IMG/VR virus record: IMGVR_UViG_3300042526_000765
Location: 1-63,826 of that record
DNA length: 63,826 nt
From: a virus
Lineage: Duplodnaviria > Caudoviricetes
Direction: 5' to 3' (one strand)
Part shown: piece after piece, positions 597 through 58,347 of the stretch
How positions within the stretch are numbered: the first letter of the stretch is position 1
Layout of the letters: each line of letters starts with the position of its first letter
Program-made: the position numbers and the translations under genes
The notes under the pieces: generated by a model
Database searches by the model: none
Seen by the model: only the letters and a program-made list of their open reading frames with translations
What the model was told of the DNA's origin: nothing

Positions 597-2882
597 ATGA
601 GTAAAGAATACATACTAATAGATAGTGATAAGTTACTACAAAAAGCTCTAGACCATCTTGAGCAACATTCTATTATAGCGTATGATGTTGAGTCTACGGG
701 ACTAAATGTACGTAAGGATAGAGTTATTGGTATTGCATTTACTGGCAAAGAAGCTATGGGATTTTACTATCCTATAATGTATTGGCAAGATCATATCAAA
801 GCACTAACTACTCATCCCTTCTATTCTGATAATACACTTAGTAAACTTTTATCTGTATTGAAAACTAAAAAGCTTGTAATGCACAATGCCTCTTACGATA
901 TTCGCATTACTGCTAACGATCTTAAAACGAACCTACTCTCAGCTCTACATGCTGATACTATGTTAATGGAGCATACTATTAACGAAGATGGTCCATTTGG
1001 ACTTAAGGACATTTGTATTCGTAGAGCAGTAGAATTAGGATTGGATTCTCAAGATGCTGCCAATCAAGAGCAACTCGATTTAAAACAATCTGTAATAGAT
1101 AATGGTGGTAAGTGGATTGCGTCTAATAAAGAAATGTATAAAGCAGATTTGTGGTTGTTACATAAGTATGCTTGTGCCGATGTGGATATGACTATTCGAT
1201 TATACAATTATAATAGAATTAGATTAGAGGAGGAGAACTTATGGGAGCTATTTCATAATATAGAGGTAATGCCAGCCTATAAATACAATACTATAAAAAT
1301 GGAACATAGAGGAGTTCATATTGATTTGCCTCGATTAGAGGAACTTCATACCGAAATTACAAACGATATTATAAAATATGAAAAAGAAGTAGTAGAAGCT
1401 TTGTATGATACTTCAGCTTGGAATACCTATATACAAAGTAAATTAGAAGAGTATCCTATATCGTGTAAAGGTTCTTTTGCTCAAGAGCTTTGTAATTACC
1501 AAGAACTAGAATTACCTACTGGAGCGAATGGAAAGTTCTTACTTAATAAAAAAACGATTGAGTCGTTGCCCGATAGTTGTTGGAAACAATTCCTTTTAAC
1601 TAATGATGCACACTACTTAGGTCCTTCCTCTATTTGGAATATTAGATGTAACCTACTAAAGAAAGATAATGAAACAGAATATCTAATTAACATTCAATCT
1701 AAAACTCAGCTTGGAGATTTAGTATTTAACTTTATGGGTATTGAGCCTCTAACGAAGACAGCCAAAGGATCGCCACAATTCAACGAAGATTTTGTAGAGA
1801 GTATATCTAAGGATCATCCTTGGGCTGAGAAACTTAGAGTGTATAACAAGCTTAACAAAATCAAGAGTAGCTACTATGATAGATTCCTTGCGAATCATGA
1901 AGATGGAGTTTACTATCCAACTTTTAAACAACACGGAACTACTTCTGCTAGATACGCTTCTGACTTTCAACAGCTACCTCGTCCAAAAGATGAAGATAGT
2001 ACAGAAAATGTTATAGTAAAAAAATATAATGATTGTATTAGAGAACTAGTTATTCCTGCTCCCGGATATGCTTTTATAGATACTGATTATGAATCATTAG
2101 AGCCTAGGTGTTTTGCTGACGATGCTGGAGATTCTGCTCTTATTAAAATATTTACAGATAACTTAGATATGTATTCAGTAGTTGCTATTATGGCGGAAGA
2201 TATTAAAGATGCTTCGGCTGATAAGAAGGCTCCTAATTTCTTAAAGAAGAAATATCCTAATGTCAGGCAGAACGCAAAGGCTTATGCTCTCGGTATTCGA
2301 TATGGAATGAAAGAGTTCAAGCTTGCCAAGAGTTTAGATATTTCCGAAGAGAAGGCGGCAGAGATTATCAAGAACTATTTCAAAGCATTTCCGGGATTAA
2401 AAGCTAAGATGGATAGATACTTAGTAGAAGTAAAAACTACTGGAAAGGTTACTAGTAAATTTGGAAGAGTACGCCACCTTCCTAGAGCTAAAGAAATTTA
2501 TCAAAGATTTGGAGATGGTATTCTTGACTTTAGAAATCTTAAAAAGATATCAGTGAAAACTGGAGTGTCTATGGATGAACTTAAAGTAATTAGAAAAGAA
2601 TATAATAACTTATTAAATAATGCTTTGAATTTTCCTATTCAATCTGCGGCTACTTCAATACTTACAAGAGCTTGTATTTCAATGGCTAAAAAATTTATAG
2701 AGGAAAGATTAGATGCGTGGCTTAGTTTATCTATTCATGATCAAGCTGTGGTATCATGTAACAAGGAGCATGTTGTTAGAGTAAAGCAAATAGTACAGGA
2801 TTGCATGGAGAATACTACGAAGTTGGCAATGCCATTAATAGCAATTCCAGCAATAGGAACTAATTTAAGAGATGCTCATTAA
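597..2882 (+). CDS. polA: Family A DNA polymerase with 3'-5' exonuclease domain
   Basis: ExoI DVESTG, ExoII HNASYD, ExoIII YACAD; motif A DTDYESLEPR, motif B RQNAKAYALGIRYG, NFPIQS, motif C IHDQ. Confidence 0.97.
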   Translation: MSKEYILIDSDKLLQKALDHLEQHSIIAYDVESTGLNVRKDRVIGIAFTGKEAMGFYYPIMYWQDHIKALTTHPFYSDNTLSKLLSVLKTKKLVMHNASYDIRITANDLKTNLLSALHADTMLMEHTINEDGPFGLKDICIRRAVELGLDSQDAANQEQLDLKQSVIDNGGKWIASNKEMYKADLWLLHKYACADVDMTIRLYNYNRIRLEEENLWELFHNIEVMPAYKYNTIKMEHRGVHIDLPRLEELHTEITNDIIKYEKEVVEALYDTSAWNTYIQSKLEEYPISCKGSFAQELCNYQELELPTGANGKFLLNKKTIESLPDSCWKQFLLTNDAHYLGPSSIWNIRCNLLKKDNETEYLINIQSKTQLGDLVFNFMGIEPLTKTAKGSPQFNEDFVESISKDHPWAEKLRVYNKLNKIKSSYYDRFLANHEDGVYYPTFKQHGTTSARYASDFQQLPRPKDEDSTENVIVKKYNDCIRELVIPAPGYAFIDTDYESLEPRCFADDAGDSALIKIFTDNLDMYSVVAIMAEDIKDASADKKAPNFLKKKYPNVRQNAKAYALGIRYGMKEFKLAKSLDISEEKAAEIIKNYFKAFPGLKAKMDRYLVEVKTTGKVTSKFGRVRHLPRAKEIYQRFGDGILDFRNLKKISVKTGVSMDELKVIRKEYNNLLNNALNFPIQSAATSILTRACISMAKKFIEERLDAWLSLSIHDQAVVSCNKEHVVRVKQIVQDCMENTTKLAMPLIAIPAIGTNLRDAH

Positions 2883-2927
2883 GAGAGTGATAATGAAAGT
2901 AAAACACTTAAAGAGGGGGGAACAATC

Positions 2928-3134
2928 GTGATCATCTTAACTTGGACTCTTGGAATTGTATTACTTGTTCTAGGTTGCTTCTGTGTATTTTTAATAAAGA
3001 GTAATCTTGAATTAGAAAATAGATTACTTACTATTGAACATGAAAAGTTCATGTCAAATATAAATAATGACATGCATAATTTACCTTCTGAAGAATATGA
3101 ACTAGTTAAAAAGAATACAAGGATGTTACAATGA
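2928..3134 (+). CDS. Small membrane-anchored hypothetical protein
   Basis: Hydrophobic N-terminal helix; GAGGGGG RBS before GTG. Confidence 0.7.
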   Translation: MIILTWTLGIVLLVLGCFCVFLIKSNLELENRLLTIEHEKFMSNINNDMHNLPSEEYELVKKNTRMLQ

Positions 3135-3343
3135 AACGAAGTACCTTAGTAAAACTACTAGCTCCAATTTTATCTCGGAAAGATACGCCAGTAACCACAA
3201 GTGCTGAACTTGTTATTAAGCAATTGGAGGAACTTAAGCTTTTAGCTCCAACTCATAAAAAGACAATTCGTAAGAAAGATATTGAACTAATGCCTTATGA
3301 AGAAACCGTCGTCGTAGAAGGTTGGGAGGATGAGAATGTCTGA
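3131..3343 (+). CDS. Hypothetical protein, MKRS family
   Basis: MKRSTLV...LEELKLLAP...GWEDENV; ATGA coupling. Confidence 0.75.
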   Translation: MKRSTLVKLLAPILSRKDTPVTTSAELVIKQLEELKLLAPTHKKTIRKKDIELMPYEETVVVEGWEDENV

Positions 3344-3506
3344 AGAGCAAGCTGAATTTGTATTAAAAGAATGGCTTTTAAATAAAGTATATTGGTCAAA
3401 TAAAAACACTGAACCTATTCCTTATGAGGTTATGGTAGCTATGCAGGTATTACCTCAGGAAGTTTTAAATAGAATAAACTCAGAAGTTAAGGCTTTATGG
3501 GACTAG
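3336..3506 (+). CDS. Small hypothetical protein (56 aa, not in ORF track)
   Basis: MSEEQAEFVLKEW...KALWD*; GGAGG RBS. Confidence 0.65.
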   Translation: MSEEQAEFVLKEWLLNKVYWSNKNTEPIPYEVMVAMQVLPQEVLNRINSEVKALWD

Positions 3507-3567
3507 CTGGTAAATTTATTCTTTTGTTTCTAATATTAATACTGTTACAATATGTACAGAGGTAGCT

Positions 3568-3834
3568 ATGTTTGCTAAACGAAGTCAAATGTTAGAGAAT
3601 ATAAAGTCAAAGTTAAGATTAGTTTCTAGTGTAGAGCAAGGTAAAATTGCGGAAGAAATACTTCAGATGGTCGAAATGTTTATGGAACCAAAGCTTAGAC
3701 CTCTTACTGAAGTAGAAGTTAATGAGCACGTTCTTGTAAAACAAGTTCACCATTCTAGAAAAGAAGAAGTAAGAAACTATGTTAGAAATTTAGATTACGA
3801 AATGAAACGAGAATTTGTACCAGAAGATACGTAA
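3568..3834 (+). CDS. Hypothetical protein, divergent MKRS family
   Basis: AKRSQMLENI...ILQMVEMFMEP; GAGG RBS. Confidence 0.75.
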   Translation: MFAKRSQMLENIKSKLRLVSSVEQGKIAEEILQMVEMFMEPKLRPLTEVEVNEHVLVKQVHHSRKEEVRNYVRNLDYEMKREFVPEDT

Positions 3835-3843
3835 GGAGTTATT

Positions 3844-3993
3844 ATGAATTTTAAAACTGCAATTATTCTATTTCTATTAATGTTCCTACAATCATGCGCA
3901 CTTCACTATGAAACTAGCTTTGGAGGTAACTCTAATGCTGAAAAAGAAGAAGAGCAAAAAAATAGAGTTTATGAAGCTGGATCGTTCAGATAA
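3844..3993 (+). CDS. Small lipoprotein (49 aa, not in ORF track)
   Basis: MNFKTAIILFLLMFLQSC: basic N-terminus, hydrophobic core, lipobox-like LQSC; AGGAG RBS. Confidence 0.7.
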   Translation: MNFKTAIILFLLMFLQSCALHYETSFGGNSNAEKEEEQKNRVYEAGSFR

Positions 3994-53230: not shown

Positions 53231-53782
53231 ATGAAAAATCAGAATCTACCTCCGATTAGAGTTTACGTTTGGGATTATTTTCTTTTTGATTGCGATAGCA
53301 ATAAAGAAGGGAAGACTGGAGGTCACTTAGTTTCTGTTAGATCTCGTCAAAATCAAGCATTGCAATTTAATGTTATTTTAGATACTGGAGCATTATTTAC
53401 AGGATTACCAGCTCATGCTATAACTTTTAGAGATGATGTTTTTAATGATAAGTTACAACTTCAAGATGCTCAAATGTGGGATTGTATAAGTGATGATATT
53501 GATGTATTTTGCATGGAAAGTTTGAGATATGCAGAATGTGAAGTTAGACCCGATATGATAGGAGCAAAACTTGCAATATACTTATTTACGGTAGATTTTG
53601 TAGGAGAAGGGTATTCCCGTCATCCTACCCATTGGAAAATGTTACACGCCGTACAAACTATAGATGGATATTTAATGTTATACCCTCAATACAGGATTAC
53701 ATTTTTAGATAAAGCTCTTTATGAAAAAAGTAAAACTCCAGAATACAAAGCTAACAGTAAACATTGGATAGTGGGATCATGA
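53231..53782 (+). CDS. Hypothetical phage protein
   Basis: GALFTGLPAHA, QMWDC, YLFTVD; 183 aa; abuts clpX. Confidence 0.75.
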   Translation: MKNQNLPPIRVYVWDYFLFDCDSNKEGKTGGHLVSVRSRQNQALQFNVILDTGALFTGLPAHAITFRDDVFNDKLQLQDAQMWDCISDDIDVFCMESLRYAECEVRPDMIGAKLAIYLFTVDFVGEGYSRHPTHWKMLHAVQTIDGYLMLYPQYRITFLDKALYEKSKTPEYKANSKHWIVGS

Positions 53783-53994
53783 AAAGAAAAGATGCTTTAA
53801 AAATTATTGATGAAATATACACACAATTTGTAGATGATTGGATAAAAGCAGATTTAGATAACTTAGAAGGGTTTGTTCCATTAAATGAACGTATTTTAAA
53901 CGCTTTAGAAAAAGCAGGAATGTTACCCCCTTCCACTTATTTAAATATCATGCAAATCCAAGATAATGCTTGGGAGACAGAAGATGAAGATTAA
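53779..53994 (+). CDS. Hypothetical protein, MKRS family
   Basis: MKRKDALKII...ILNALEKAGMLPP...AWETED. Confidence 0.8.
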   Translation: MKRKDALKIIDEIYTQFVDDWIKADLDNLEGFVPLNERILNALEKAGMLPPSTYLNIMQIQDNAWETEDED

Positions 53995-55126
53995 TATTGG
54001 TATCACTTTAATTTTAAAAGATCCAAAAAAAGATTCTCCTTTTAGTAATGGAATTCGTCAAAATGTAATATTACTTCAAGAACTATATAAGAAATGTAAA
54101 AATGTAAATAATTCTTATATTATTAATGCATCGGAAGTAAAAAAAGAAGACTATACTGGAACTTTATGGGAAAAATATTCTGAAAATATTATATCAATTA
54201 AAGAAGCTTCTGAATTATGTGATGTAATAGTTGTATGTCATAGTAATCTTACAAAATCTCAATTTCAAGAATTAAAAAAATTAAATAAAAAAATTGTTTT
54301 TCAAGTATTAGGCGCAGAATTAAGTATTTTTAATGAAAAAGTACTATTTGAAGATAAGTCGAATGGACTATACGAAAAAAATTCAGCACTAGATGCAATA
54401 TGGGTAAGTCCTCATTTCTTCGAAAGAGACAAATACTTCTTTGAGGAATTGCACAAATGTCCAGTTTATGAAGCTCCTTACATATGGAGTCCTCAATTTA
54501 TGGAATCAGACATTAAAAGACAAGAAGAAAAAAGAGGAACTGCTAACTACACTCCTACTGAAAAAGAAAAAAGAATCTCTACCATGGAACCTAATTTAAA
54601 TATGGTAAAAACTTCTATAGTTCCAATTATAATATCTGAAAAATTTTTTAATAAACATCAAAATTTAGTTAAGAAAATAAGCATCTTTGGAACGGACAGA
54701 ATTAAATCAAAAAAAGATTTTATTCAATTTGTAAGTCAAATGAATGCTTGCTCTTCTAAAAAAATGTTTTTTGAAAGTAGGTATCCTATTGTCTGGACTT
54801 TAACCGCACATACAGATATCGTACTATGTCATCAAAGTGGGTGTGAATTAAACTACTTGTATCTAGACGCAGCATGGCTTGGATATCCTATCGTTCATAA
54901 TAGTCCAATGATGAAAGACTTAGGATGGTATTATCCTGAAAACAACGCAACTATTGCAGTTGAGCATTTACATTATATAGCAAAAAATTTTGATAACATA
55001 GAGCATCCAAATAATAAATATTTAGAAAAAAGTAGAAAGTTTGCCAGCAAATACATGATAAATAATCCTGAAAATATAATAGGTTACGAGTATTTAATCG
55101 ACGAGTTATTTAGAACTAAAAAATAA
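53984..55126 (+). CDS. DUF2827-like putative glycosyltransferase
   Basis: IGIT...FSNGIRQN, PYIWSP, EPNLNMVKTSIVP, DIVLCHQ...LNYLYLD...GYPIVHNS match my recollection of DUF2827. Confidence 0.75.
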   Translation: MKINIGITLILKDPKKDSPFSNGIRQNVILLQELYKKCKNVNNSYIINASEVKKEDYTGTLWEKYSENIISIKEASELCDVIVVCHSNLTKSQFQELKKLNKKIVFQVLGAELSIFNEKVLFEDKSNGLYEKNSALDAIWVSPHFFERDKYFFEELHKCPVYEAPYIWSPQFMESDIKRQEEKRGTANYTPTEKEKRISTMEPNLNMVKTSIVPIIISEKFFNKHQNLVKKISIFGTDRIKSKKDFIQFVSQMNACSSKKMFFESRYPIVWTLTAHTDIVLCHQSGCELNYLYLDAAWLGYPIVHNSPMMKDLGWYYPENNATIAVEHLHYIAKNFDNIEHPNNKYLEKSRKFASKYMINNPENIIGYEYLIDELFRTKK

Positions 55127-55177: not shown

Positions 55178-55369
55178 ATGAAAAAATTATCTAATGTAAA
55201 TGGAAAAGCAACTAAACTTAACAAACCTTTAACTGCCGGTACTATTAATTTCATCGTACAAAATGCTGGAAAAATGAAAGCAAAGAATATTGCAGCTATT
55301 ATTCACCGTCCCTTAAAAACCGTTCAAGGGGTAGCGTTACGCCTTGGCATTTCTCTAAGAGTGTTCTAA
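55178..55369 (+). CDS. Small basic HTH-like protein
   Basis: INFIVQNAGKMKAKNIAAIIHRPLKTVQGVALRLGI. Confidence 0.7.
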   Translation: MKKLSNVNGKATKLNKPLTAGTINFIVQNAGKMKAKNIAAIIHRPLKTVQGVALRLGISLRVF

Positions 55370-55401
55370 TTGTCTTTTTAATAGACGCACTCCCTCCTTA
55401 G

Positions 55402-55465
55402 AGGTGTCACATACCCCCTAAAAGTTATAGATTTTAGGAAGTTGTGAGGTGGCGGCTCGCCATTT
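55402..55465 (+). ncRNA. Conserved structured RNA motif, copy 1 (pseudoknot, ToxI-like)
   Basis: AGGTGTCACATACC-23 nt hairpin-AAGTTGTGAG-TGGCG GCT CGCCA; intergenic. Confidence 0.65.
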
Positions 55466-55472
55466 AAAAATT

Positions 55473-55625
55473 ATGATACAAAAAAAATTAGAATTAACAG
55501 TAATAGGATATTTGTTCACGTTATTAAATATTTTAATGACAGTTAGAGGATTTCCTATTGTTGGAATAGCTTTTGGATTTACCGCCTGTATTTTTTTTAT
55601 AAAAGCCCTGAGAATAAAGGAATAG
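55473..55625 (+). CDS. Small 2-TM membrane protein (not in ORF track)
   Basis: MIQKKLELTVIGYLFTLLNIL...GIAFGFTACIFFIKALRIKE*. Confidence 0.55.
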   Translation: MIQKKLELTVIGYLFTLLNILMTVRGFPIVGIAFGFTACIFFIKALRIKE

Positions 55626-55626
55626 T

Positions 55627-55809
55627 GTGGAAATAATTCAAACAATTGCGTTACTATGTCAATTACATACAAGTTCTGATACTACATCTATGATAAAATT
55701 TGTAGAAGAAAAACAATTAAAGTGTCAGCAATATTATACAAAATGTTTAGATGGTGGATTTCTTGGAGACTACAAGAATTTATCAAAATGTATTTCTCAG
55801 AAAAAATAA
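55627..55809 (+). CDS. Small Cys-containing hypothetical protein
   Basis: Four Cys; GTG start. Confidence 0.55.
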   Translation: MEIIQTIALLCQLHTSSDTTSMIKFVEEKQLKCQQYYTKCLDGGFLGDYKNLSKCISQKK

Positions 55810-56091
55810 TAAAATTTATAAAAGAAGATTTGAATAGAATGTCCACTTACGAAAGATGGCGTTTGGTTTTTCAAATTATACAAATTATAATAACTTTAGG
55901 AGTTCCATTTATAGCAGTATGGTTAAACAAAAATTGGCACTAAATTTTATTCACGGATTAATAATTGGAGTAGCCTTAACTATGGCTATTATGTCGGTAG
56001 TTATTGATAAAATGTTTATAAGCAAAGATATTTTTAAATTAAAAAAAATATATGTAAATGGAAGAATTTTTAAACTCTGTGAGGATAGATA

Positions 56092-56256
56092 ATGTATTTA
56101 TTATTCTTAATTATACTTAATTCTTCAGGAAGTAACATATCTACAAATGTTTCTAAATTTAACTCAGAATCTAATTGTTTACAGGCAATTGCTAAAATTT
56201 TAGAAATGGAAAATAAAAATAGAATTAAAATTCAAGCAAGGTGCGTGAGACAATGA
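56092..56256 (+). CDS. Small putative exported protein with a Cys pair (not in ORF track)
   Basis: MYLLFLIIL...FNSESNC...ARCV*; GAGGA RBS. Confidence 0.6.
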   Translation: MYLLFLIILNSSGSNISTNVSKFNSESNCLQAIAKILEMENKNRIKIQARCVRQ

Positions 56257-56516
56257 GCTATAATATAGACGGAAAAGTTGTAAATCAGTACGCCACTGTT
56301 AAAGTAGATAATACAGTAAGATGTGAAAAATGTAGCAAAGTTTTTTCAGCTCCACTTACTACAACAATGTTAGCACCTCCAAGAGGGTATATTATAAAAC
56401 ATTATATACACTTACCATATTACATATACGAAACCAAAAGTGGTATAGCTGTAGTATATTGTTCTGATTACTGTAGAAAAAAACATAATCATAGATTTAC
56501 AAAAAGAACAAAATGA
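56253..56516 (+). CDS. Zinc-finger protein
   Basis: CEKC...YCSDYC. Confidence 0.7.
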   Translation: MSYNIDGKVVNQYATVKVDNTVRCEKCSKVFSAPLTTTMLAPPRGYIIKHYIHLPYYIYETKSGIAVVYCSDYCRKKHNHRFTKRTK

Positions 56517-57154
56517 AAATTACTTGTATTTCTGATACTCATCAACTACATGATCAACTAATAATACCCCCTTGTGATATGATTATTCACGCAGGAGATT
56601 TTACTAACAGAGGTAAGCAAGATGAAGTTAGAAATTTTATAGAATGGTATGCTATTCAAGAAGCTAACCATAAAATTTTAGTTTGCGGAAACCATGAAGT
56701 TGAGATAAGTAAAAATATACAAAAACTACAAAAATTGTGCGTGGACAATAATATAATTTTGTTAAATAATGAACACATAGAAATAAATGGTTTGAAAATA
56801 TTTGGAAGCCCCTATTCTAAAGAATTTGGAAGATGGGCATACGGCTTACCAGATTTAGAATTAGATAAAATATGGGGTTTAATAGATTATGATACAGATA
56901 TATTAGTTACTCATGGACCTGCATTTTTTAGACAGGATAAATGTCCCGGTGGAAATGTGGGGAGTGCTACCCTAACTAATCACATTGAAAATAGATTAAC
57001 TAAATTAAAATTACATGTTTGTGGGCACATTCATGAAAGTAGAGGTTGTTCTTTAGAATCTACCAATTATGAAAATTACATAACAGTAAATGCTTCGGTT
57101 TGTGGAATTCCGTACTCTGATTTTATAATTAACCCCATAACGATTGAACTATGA
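56513..57154 (+). CDS. Calcineurin-like metallophosphoesterase
   Basis: ISDTH, HAGD, GNHE, THGP, GHIHE. Confidence 0.93.
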   Translation: MKITCISDTHQLHDQLIIPPCDMIIHAGDFTNRGKQDEVRNFIEWYAIQEANHKILVCGNHEVEISKNIQKLQKLCVDNNIILLNNEHIEINGLKIFGSPYSKEFGRWAYGLPDLELDKIWGLIDYDTDILVTHGPAFFRQDKCPGGNVGSATLTNHIENRLTKLKLHVCGHIHESRGCSLESTNYENYITVNASVCGIPYSDFIINPITIEL

Positions 57155-57414
57155 AATCTGATAATAAGAAAAAAATAGCTAAAGAATTAAATGTAAATCT
57201 TACAAATGAAGAAATTTTTGATCTTGATTTGGAATATAAAAGAGTAGAGTTAGAATTACTTTTTTCTGATCAGTGCTATGAAAATCAATTAAAAGCTTTT
57301 AGTTTAAACATGCCATATAAATGTACATGTGTGGATACTTATAGTATGTCAAAAAATGAAATTGAGAAACATCTATCTATTTTTGAAATTAAAAAGAAAA
57401 GGGAAATGCAATGA
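57151..57414 (+). CDS. Hypothetical protein
   Basis: ATGA-coupled ORF. Confidence 0.65.
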   Translation: MKSDNKKKIAKELNVNLTNEEIFDLDLEYKRVELELLFSDQCYENQLKAFSLNMPYKCTCVDTYSMSKNEIEKHLSIFEIKKKREMQ

Positions 57415-57644
57415 TTTGGTGTGTGGAAGTCATTAATTTAAAAAAAAATAAAACAAAATATTTATTAGATTATGAAATTAAAGACGCATCTGCAACTTTA
57501 AATGGAATACGCCTTATTGGTCATCATGAAAGAACTTCAGCGGGATCTGTAGATTTTTTTATTAAAAATAAAGGAATATCCTTAGATCCTGATTTAGATA
57601 TAAGAGATGGAGATCTACTTGTAATAAAGGGATTTAGGGATTGA
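57411..57644 (+). CDS. Hypothetical protein
   Basis: ATGA-coupled ORF. Confidence 0.65.
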   Translation: MIWCVEVINLKKNKTKYLLDYEIKDASATLNGIRLIGHHERTSAGSVDFFIKNKGISLDPDLDIRDGDLLVIKGFRD

Positions 57645-58045
57645 ATAGCGAACTTAAAAAATATATAAAAGATATTTGTGAGATATATGGTTGTACTTTA
57701 AAAATATCTAATAAAAATACTGGTGGCTTATACTGGAATGGAGCTATAACATTAAGTAATGATATGTCCGATAAAGAAACTATAACAGTGTTTTGCCATG
57801 AACTTGCCCATTACAAAAATGATATAGAAAATAAATATCCGATATTTCATAAAACAAATCACTACAAGGCTATTGAAAGAATGGGGAGAAAAAATTTTGC
57901 AAGATACGCCTTAAATGCTGAATTATATACAGAAAAAATAGGAAAAGAACTTTGTAAGATATGGTTTCCTGCTCATGTCTTTAAATACGGTTATAAAAAC
58001 AATCAATATTGGCTTGGATTTTTTTATGGGTATTATTTTAATTAA
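57641..58045 (+). CDS. ImmA/IrrE-like HExxH metallopeptidase
   Basis: GGLY...ITL...FCHELAH...downstream Glu. Confidence 0.65.
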   Translation: MNSELKKYIKDICEIYGCTLKISNKNTGGLYWNGAITLSNDMSDKETITVFCHELAHYKNDIENKYPIFHKTNHYKAIERMGRKNFARYALNAELYTEKIGKELCKIWFPAHVFKYGYKNNQYWLGFFYGYYFN

Positions 58046-58054
58046 TGCTATAAT
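58046..58054 (+). promoter_or_regulatory. Extended -10 promoter TGCTATAAT
   Basis: Perfect TGnTATAAT 20 bp upstream of RNA motif copy 2. Confidence 0.65.
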
Positions 58055-58074
58055 AAATTATCGCAGTGCTACCA

Positions 58075-58143
58075 AGGTGTCACATACCAGATAGCGATTA
58101 TATCGATTACAAAGTTGTGAGAGTGGCGGGCTCCGCTTTTTTT
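58075..58143 (+). ncRNA. Conserved structured RNA motif, copy 2, ending in a terminator-like hairpin
   Basis: AGGTGTCACATACC-23 nt hairpin-AAGTTGTGAG-GGCGG GCT CCGC-T7. Confidence 0.65.
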
Positions 58144-58155
58144 GAGGACCATACT

Positions 58156-58347
58156 ATGAAGATTATATATGAATTTGATCCTTATGAAGATAAAGAAGAA
58201 CTTGAGCTTTTTCAAAACGCAAGCGTAAATGCTAAAAAATTAGATGAAATTACTAGATATGTTAGAAAGTTAAATAAGTATGATGAAAGAGAAGTGATTT
58301 CTATTGAAGAACTAGTTACAAATATGAATGAAATATTAAATGACTAA
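58156..58347 (+). CDS. Hypothetical protein
   Basis: GAGGA RBS before ATG at 58156; the track's GTG start at 58066 runs through the RNA motif. Confidence 0.7.
   Translation: MKIIYEFDPYEDKEELELFQNASVNAKKLDEITRYVRKLNKYDEREVISIEELVTNMNEILND

Follow-up and report, generated by a model that had tools for sequence, protein, structure and literature searches.

Two dispersed copies of a ToxI-like pseudoknot motif in an uncultured tailed-phage genome very probably represent an uncatalogued family of phage RNA elements

Why would a tailed-phage genome carry, 2.7 kb apart, two solitary copies of one short intergenic sequence that looks able to fold like ToxI, the RNA antitoxin of ToxIN systems? The copies lie in IMG/VR virus record IMGVR_UViG_3300042526_000765 (Duplodnaviria; Caudoviricetes), which was analyzed as a whole (63,826 bp, rated 76% complete; hereafter the window), has ~32% G+C, and includes genes for a DNA polymerase, a ribonucleotide reductase, a terminase, a portal protein, and a capsid protein. 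The original prediction took the repeated motif for an RNA decoy against a ToxN-like defense RNase or else for a new riboswitch or attenuator class. Here, we find that the repeat reflects a family and not chance, and that both copies very probably belong to an uncatalogued family of 45- to 110-nt structured RNA elements lying in sense orientation to their flanking genes in freshwater tailed phages. As judged from sequence comparison, the resemblance to ToxI appears real at the level of the fold, though the motif is not a member of the ToxI family. As to function, an antitoxin-like or decoy RNA is the reading that we tentatively favor.

Within the window, exact matching recovers in both copies the shared boxes, their 23-nt separation, and the 3' hairpins with GCT loops and differing stems that the original prediction described (Table 1). 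The 5' box (AGGTGTCACATACC) and the 3' box (AAGTTGTGAG) each have these two sites as their sole exact copies in the window, and the spacers between them hold TTATA at spacer positions 10-14. By our own estimate, ~8 repeated 14-mer pairs are expected per strand in 64 kb, while a second exact 10-mer at equal distance has a probability of ~1e-6 per pair; chance is thus negligible because the second 10-mer recurs at the same distance, and the occurrence of the family elsewhere settles the question. Shared by the two window copies, the 23-nt spacing and the TTATA at its center do not extend to the family, in which the spacer (loop 2 of the pseudoknot) spans 3-63 nt (median 26) and ends in AAGU. A hairpin had been proposed for each spacer, and it is found in copy 1 (7 bp, -6.6 kcal/mol, z = -3.2) while the spacer of copy 2 folds weakly (-1.4 kcal/mol, z = -0.1). 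Also present, as proposed, are the T7 tail of copy 2 and a promoter-like box upstream of it (TGCTATAAT), a consensus match that is retained as TGGTATAAT in the orthologous copy of one related contig, L023. The 3' hairpin (hereafter P3) of copy 2 was, together with its U7 tract, called as an intrinsic terminator; after the P3 of copy 1 stands AUUU only.

The family set comprises 42 distinct instances, chiefly from related uncultured freshwater phage contigs, with three in bacterial metagenome-assembled genomes (MAGs). An exact-core pattern with spacers of 15-35 nt yielded eight loci in IMG/VR, and extra exact-core scans with shorter and longer spacers added six and 16 more, while a looser pattern matched 58 loci, mostly by chance. 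Separately, a route blind to the RNA retrieved 11, 18, and 11 loci via the 63-amino-acid (aa) helix-turn-helix (HTH)-like protein encoded just upstream of copy 1. There, the motif follows the stop codon of the HTH gene by 4-31 nt at 16 of 18 viral loci and at all 11 metagenome loci, the latter including one (L048) that was spotted by eye only and is too diverged for the family model; at the two remaining viral loci (L037 and L038), the motif was not found. Complete or near-complete phage genomes carry one to three copies at different gene junctions, and one copy also occurs in a 356-kb phage. Structural proteins of three genomes fetched whole (G004, G005, and G159) are ~30-50% identical to those of the window, which places the motif carriers in one deep clade.

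Beyond these phage contigs, occurrences are few. The three MAG instances lie on contigs of ~1-Mb genomes; within one small-genome order, 3 of 151 genomes hold the motif, one of these being the query genome itself and one doubtful; and a scan of species-representative genomes found the motif core in four contigs only. Cultured relatives gave no match at the DNA level and none to the HTH protein, the sole cultured terminase match being a Silvanigrella phage at 27.6% identity, and a homologue search with the gene upstream of copy 2 returned one contig that was already in the set. The motif is not catalogued in Rfam 15: no family reaches its gathering score in the whole window, nothing relevant appears at E <= 10 around the copies, the short-spacer loci, or the MAG loci, and hence neither a ToxI nor a riboswitch model matched. 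No description of the motif was found in the literature, where it may still be an unnamed entry among 8,495 IMG/VR candidate RNAs (PMC10690425, of which excerpts were used).

The elements appear to be structured RNAs. The core is predicted to be an H-type pseudoknot, in which stem 1 (GGU/ACC, 3-4 bp with an optional fourth outer pair) encloses an invariant loop 1, GUCACAU, whose CACA is complementary to an invariant downstream UGUG, forming stem 2. Stem 1 covaries. Among 42 rows, pair 6-14 is UA in 32, CG in seven, UG in one, and other in two; pair 5-15 is GC in 39, CG in two, and other in one; and pair 4-16 is GC in 35, AU, CG, and GU in one each, and other in four. These rows include eight variants from the loose scan, which we chose by eye because their 3' hairpin was of the family type, a choice not made blind to stem 1. 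Doubly changed cells number 22, compared with 7.3 +/- 2.0 after shuffling (0 of 500 shuffles reached 22), and pairing extends to 85.7% of cells, falling to 48.2% at most once the partner is slid. In the eight hand-picked matches stem-1 pairs form in 21 of 24 cases, and in the other 35 non-canonical matches in 38 of 105, the chance level. A generic hairpin filter tried on the 58 loose matches gave no separation and was discarded: a complete stem 1 was seen in 5 of the 14 loci that passed and in 5 of the 29 that failed. The stem originally drawn as GGUG/UACC holds in its GGU/ACC part, while its fourth, G-U pair lacks covariation support.

For stem 2, a transition-tolerant scan returned two chance matches and no true variant, and L048 shows a single compensatory double change (A-U to C-G). 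Because both strands are otherwise invariant, the pairing rests on complementarity, on that one change, and on analogy with ToxI; with the covariation of stem 1, these points uphold the H-type pseudoknot originally proposed for the transcribed strand. A nested long hairpin (CACAuAC with GUUGUG), the RNAfold minimum-free-energy fold of copy 1, was rejected because the additional pairs that it requires cannot form or are disrupted in L028, L033/L034, L093, L101, and L134 while stem 1 holds. Long versions of loop 2 mostly fold as a hairpin and short ones are without it, so that this hairpin is optional; the smallest natural version of the element stands at L090:8876-8924.

P3 begins 1-4 nt past the knot, has a GCU, GCUA, or GCA loop in 27 of 31 instances, and covaries strongly. 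Counted on 19 of the 31 instances, in segments anchored on a loop of our choosing and omitting eight GCUA-loop instances (whose gap MAFFT misplaced) and four with irregular P3 (L036, L049, L059, and L069), double changes occur in all five pairs, with 22 such cells against 6.0 +/- 1.9 after shuffling (0 of 500 shuffles), and the share of paired cells is 88.8%, dropping to 53.8% at most with the partner slid. The P3 stems also hold about a dozen G-U pairs, each of them a mismatch on the opposite strand, which together with the constant sense orientation indicates an RNA of the + strand. A coding or recoding signal was considered and rejected, since loop 2 is not a multiple of 3 in length and the frame changes from locus to locus.

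Table 1. Coordinates, in the window, of the two motif copies, the promoter-like box, and the adjoining genes
Feature	Position	Strand	Remarks
63-aa HTH-like gene upstream of copy 1	55178..55369	+	syntenic neighbor in one lineage, not an obligate partner
Copy 1, 5' box	55402..55415	+	predicted stem 1, 55403-05 (GGU) with 55413-15 (ACC); 7-nt loop GUCACAU, 55406-12
Copy 1, loop 2 with optional hairpin	55416..55438	+	23 nt; 55417-23 pairs with 55432-38
Copy 1, 3' box AAGUUGUGAG	55439..55448	+	UGUG 55443-46 with CACA 55408-11, predicted stem 2; AAGU corresponds to ToxI A19-U22
Copy 1, P3 hairpin GUGGCG-GCU-CGCCAU	55449..55463	+	
Downstream gene of copy 1, encoding a 50-aa hydrophobic peptide	55473..55625	+	no family match
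Extended -10 promoter-like box TGCTATAAT upstream of copy 2	58046..58054	+	consensus match
Copy 2, 5' box	58075..58088	+	predicted stem 1 and GUCACAU loop
Copy 2, loop 2	58089..58111	+	23 nt; weak hairpin CGAU/AUCG
Copy 2, 3' box AAGUUGUGAG	58112..58121	+	3' strand of predicted stem 2
Copy 2, P3 GGCGG-GCU-CCGCU and U7 tract	58125..58143	+	hairpin itself 58125-37
Downstream gene of copy 2, encoding a 63-aa acidic protein	58156..58347	+	no family match

How far does the resemblance to ToxI go? Real ToxI arrays, which we fetched for comparison, consist of units of the form AGGUG-AUU(U/C)GC-UACC-UU(U)AAGU-GC(A/G)..., and the motif is likewise an H-type pseudoknot laid out as AGGUG, loop, UACC, AAGU, and pairing strand, sharing G2, G3, U4, G5, U12, A13, C14, C15, A19, A20, G21, and U22. 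Excerpts of PMC8860590 list G5, A6, U12, A19, A20, G21, U22, and two stem-1 G-C pairs (the middle two of four pairs) as conserved for folding or contact, with G5 forming a turn, A6 contacting ToxN, A19 and A20 docking into stem 1, and stem 2 including U12 paired with U22, to which G21 adds as a base triple. Excerpts of PMC3475682 add a U9-A25 pair, a U16-18 loop tolerant of length, and essential C27 and U28. Measured against the first list, six of the seven single nucleotides are kept in the motif, some positions being preset by our search patterns; at the equivalents of A19, A20, and G21, likewise partly preset, the 42 instances hold A in 36, A in 42, and G in 38, and of the two stem-1 G-C pairs, one is found in 35 and the other in 39 of the 42 rows. 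The extra sequence of the motif falls in loop 2, the loop that is length-tolerant in ToxI (PMC3475682, in the part consulted). In both systems, a hairpin or terminator stands between the RNA and the gene that follows: real ToxI loci run repeats, terminator, gene, and the motif runs knot, P3 with or without U-tract, gene. Differences are that loop 1 of the motif is shorter and stem 2 is longer and spelled with other letters, and that where ToxI has a 3' overhang, the motif has P3 with its conserved GCU(A) loop.

The closest phage-borne parallel is the pseudo-ToxI of Pectobacterium phage phiTE, which is also non-array, intergenic, and ToxI-like (excerpts of PMC3475682). The motif differs in being an old, conserved family with extra parts. 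The likeness that the original prediction saw thus stands for layout and, with some positions preset by the search patterns, for most of the nucleotides, against real arrays, phiTE, and the list excerpted from PMC8860590, and fails for family membership, because units are solitary, no ToxN was found, the A6 equivalent is U, and no ToxI model matches.

On the strength of the structure, and by inference as to its transcription, partner, and effect, we tentatively read the motif as a protein-sequestering, antitoxin-like RNA or decoy. The RNA would be made early, from its own promoter in copy 2 or within operon transcripts, P3 would terminate or stabilize it, and the knot would sequester a sequence-specific RNA-binding protein. 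The likeliest target would be a host ToxN-like or other defense or decay endoribonuclease, leaving phage transcripts protected. Behind this reading stand the invariant letters of the knot, which imply that something sequence-specific recognizes them; a P3 loop that is conserved, freedom from particular neighbors, and the multiple copies would likewise support specific recognition, and the conserved -10 box of copy 2 is consistent with it. A narrower and more doubtful version holds that the solitary ToxI-fold RNAs of this lake-phage clade might be standing decoys against host ToxN-like or other abortive-infection or decay endoribonucleases, with P3 serving as a second contact or stabilizer.

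Several observations weigh against an antitoxin-like decoy. The A6 equivalent, the position with which ToxI contacts ToxN, is invariably U. Binding by ToxN requires the single-stranded overhangs of ToxI, the knot by itself being non-binding (PMC8860590, in the part consulted), while the 5' flanks of the motif are A/U-rich and variable and follow UAA stop codons, and its 3' flank is a hairpin. No tandem array occurs in the window, other genomes hold one to three dispersed units, and no arrays with the motif core were found in 185,579 species-representative genomes. ToxN (PF13958) was not found in the window or in five motif-bearing phage genomes, in a search that was positive for two ToxIN plasmids used as control, and no toxN adjoins the core at the two loci checked (L052 and L055) of the four representative-genome contigs. 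The phiTE pseudo-ToxI, 1.5 repeats long, is 98-100% identical to real plasmid ToxI arrays, while the motif matches no known array. Covariance models point the same way with different force: the 34-position Rfam ToxI model (RF02519) does not match the motif, yet it also misses the annotated phiTE pseudo-ToxI, so its silence does not exclude a ToxI of enterobacterial type and the Rfam negative is weak; a ToxI model that we built from six genuine units (R2) scores held-out arrays and the phiTE pseudo-ToxI at 27-53 bits and matched none of eight family members (taken from loci outside the window copies) at E <= 10, both models being narrow. Finally, stem 2 is invariant among phages whose structural proteins are 30-50% identical, which does not resemble the fast-evolving specificity of toxin-antitoxin systems, and a decoy leaves the conservation of the P3 loop unexplained.

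Ranking just below the antitoxin-like reading and nearly as likely is a cis-acting role, a possibility in which the element punctuates operons: P3 with its U-tract would act as a leaky terminator or attenuator, and the knot would set termination efficiency or block exonucleases, stabilizing the 3' end of the upstream message or the 5' end of the one downstream. The placement of the elements suits such a role, as they are intergenic and in sense, most start 4-10 nt past a stop codon, the next ribosome-binding site (RBS) follows 5-25 nt past P3, and genomes hold several copies at different gene junctions. By our own count of 29 instances, the U-tract after P3 is strong in ~15 and moderate in ~8; the terminator call at copy 2 and two MAG instances ending in hairpins (L055 with U6) agree. 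The remaining ~6 of the 29 are without a U-tract, however, and a terminator can do without an invariant pseudoknot or a conserved loop, while the extreme letter conservation of stem 2 suggests specific recognition.

A self-cleaving ribozyme, or an RNase processing signal in polycistronic phage transcripts, is unlikely, even though invariant unpaired and junction nucleotides, covarying stems, an optional variable hairpin, and one to three intergenic copies in phages are all seen here. Small ribozymes typically present just this profile of invariant junction letters, covarying stems, an optional hairpin, and one to three intergenic phage copies. Yet no Rfam ribozyme matched at E <= 10, and there is no nameable cleavage site.

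Less likely still is a ligand-sensing riboswitch or attenuator in which a small pseudoknot aptamer governs the P3 terminator. Aptamers of the preQ1-II type are small H-type pseudoknots with a hairpin in loop 3, and the motif shares with them compactness, a covarying stem 1, a conserved loop and tail, an optional embedded hairpin, and sometimes a terminator after it. A stem 1 that covaries beside an invariant loop and 3' strand is also in keeping with small pseudoknot aptamers generally, and copy 2 runs in the order promoter, knot, terminator, RBS, and gene. Unlike preQ1-II aptamers, though, the motif has no Rfam match, riboswitch models included, no consistent function among its downstream genes, and a conserved loop in its 3' hairpin that is atypical of an expression platform, and many instances are without a U-tract. 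The riboswitch half of the alternative in the original prediction is thus weakened, because the downstream genes differ.

A DNA-level site, an operator for the HTH protein or a cruciform, is very improbable, since the inverted TCACA/TGTGA of the boxes and the HTH-like gene beside many copies are outweighed by a box distance varying from 3 to 63 nt, stems kept via G-U pairs on one strand only, an orientation that always follows transcription, and the HTH gene not being found in five motif-bearing records (in a search without a positive control).

The nut sites of lambda and put sites of HK022, which follow a cro-like gene, offer one more comparison. Like them, the motif has two or more dispersed copies, one of them right after a small HTH gene, and a conserved-loop hairpin with a covarying stem. 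Unlike them, its hairpin is often followed by a U-tract and its copies are not tied to the HTH gene, and no boxA-like element and no N- or Q-like protein was identified.

Should the decoy reading prove true, the family would be the first case of an RNA antitoxin mimic that is conserved and naturally widespread among phages and would indicate an RNase-type defense as yet unknown in abundant freshwater bacteria, and RNA antitoxin mimicry would count as an ancient, conserved phage counter-defense, as against the laboratory escape event in phiTE. Decoy or not, the motif is a well-supported new phage RNA family with two covarying helices and an unusually invariant knot, and hence a good object for probing its structure and seeking its partner; it also suggests that a ToxI-type knot signature can arise beyond toxin-antitoxin arrays.

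The genes around the motif vary. A same-strand open reading frame (ORF) starts within ~100 nt downstream in 28 of 30 phage instances, the downstream genes including the 50-aa membrane peptide, dUTPase-like, DNA polymerase-like, and tRNA genes, and acidic proteins of 61-63 aa. An obligate partnership with the HTH gene was considered and rejected on the search described above, which had no positive control and did not find the gene in five motif-bearing records. Just upstream of the HTH gene, the window encodes a DUF2827 protein (53966-55126, E = 2.5e-85) and a match to phrog_3704 ("ferredoxin"; 53231-53782), and a phrog_3704-matching protein also adjoins the motif region in G005 and G159. The gene for the 50-aa hydrophobic peptide follows the motif in ~9 related contigs, and its G159 homologue lies far from the motif. 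Just before copy 1, at 55380-55401, stands a CUCCCUCCU stretch resembling an anti-Shine-Dalgarno sequence, which is also present in the orthologous copies of L003/L023, L004, L005, and L027 and could pair with the GAGG that follows stem 2. In G005 (L074:5051-5200, identical in L065), the motif follows a DNA polymerase gene and lies directly upstream of a tRNA-like gene; the phiTE pseudo-ToxI likewise adjoins a tRNA gene and a tRNA-like 3' half (L051:373-410).

Among the MAG instances, those at L055:760-1000 and L052:1900-2110 are both preceded by a short ORF whose end reads (L/V)PFY-stop and have a similar P3 (GAGGG-AGCAGA-CCCUC). Both lie in long non-coding gaps of ~1-Mb genomes, that of L055 falling between a tRNA-synthetase-like gene and ruvA. 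The L052 region (622-3900), beside rpoB in a Patescibacteria MAG, spans ~3 kb with no convincing ORF under code 11 or 25 and no Rfam match. At L082:927-1552, beside L32 and nusB-like genes, a G+C-rich 162-aa ORF together with the motif looks foreign in an A+T-rich small genome.

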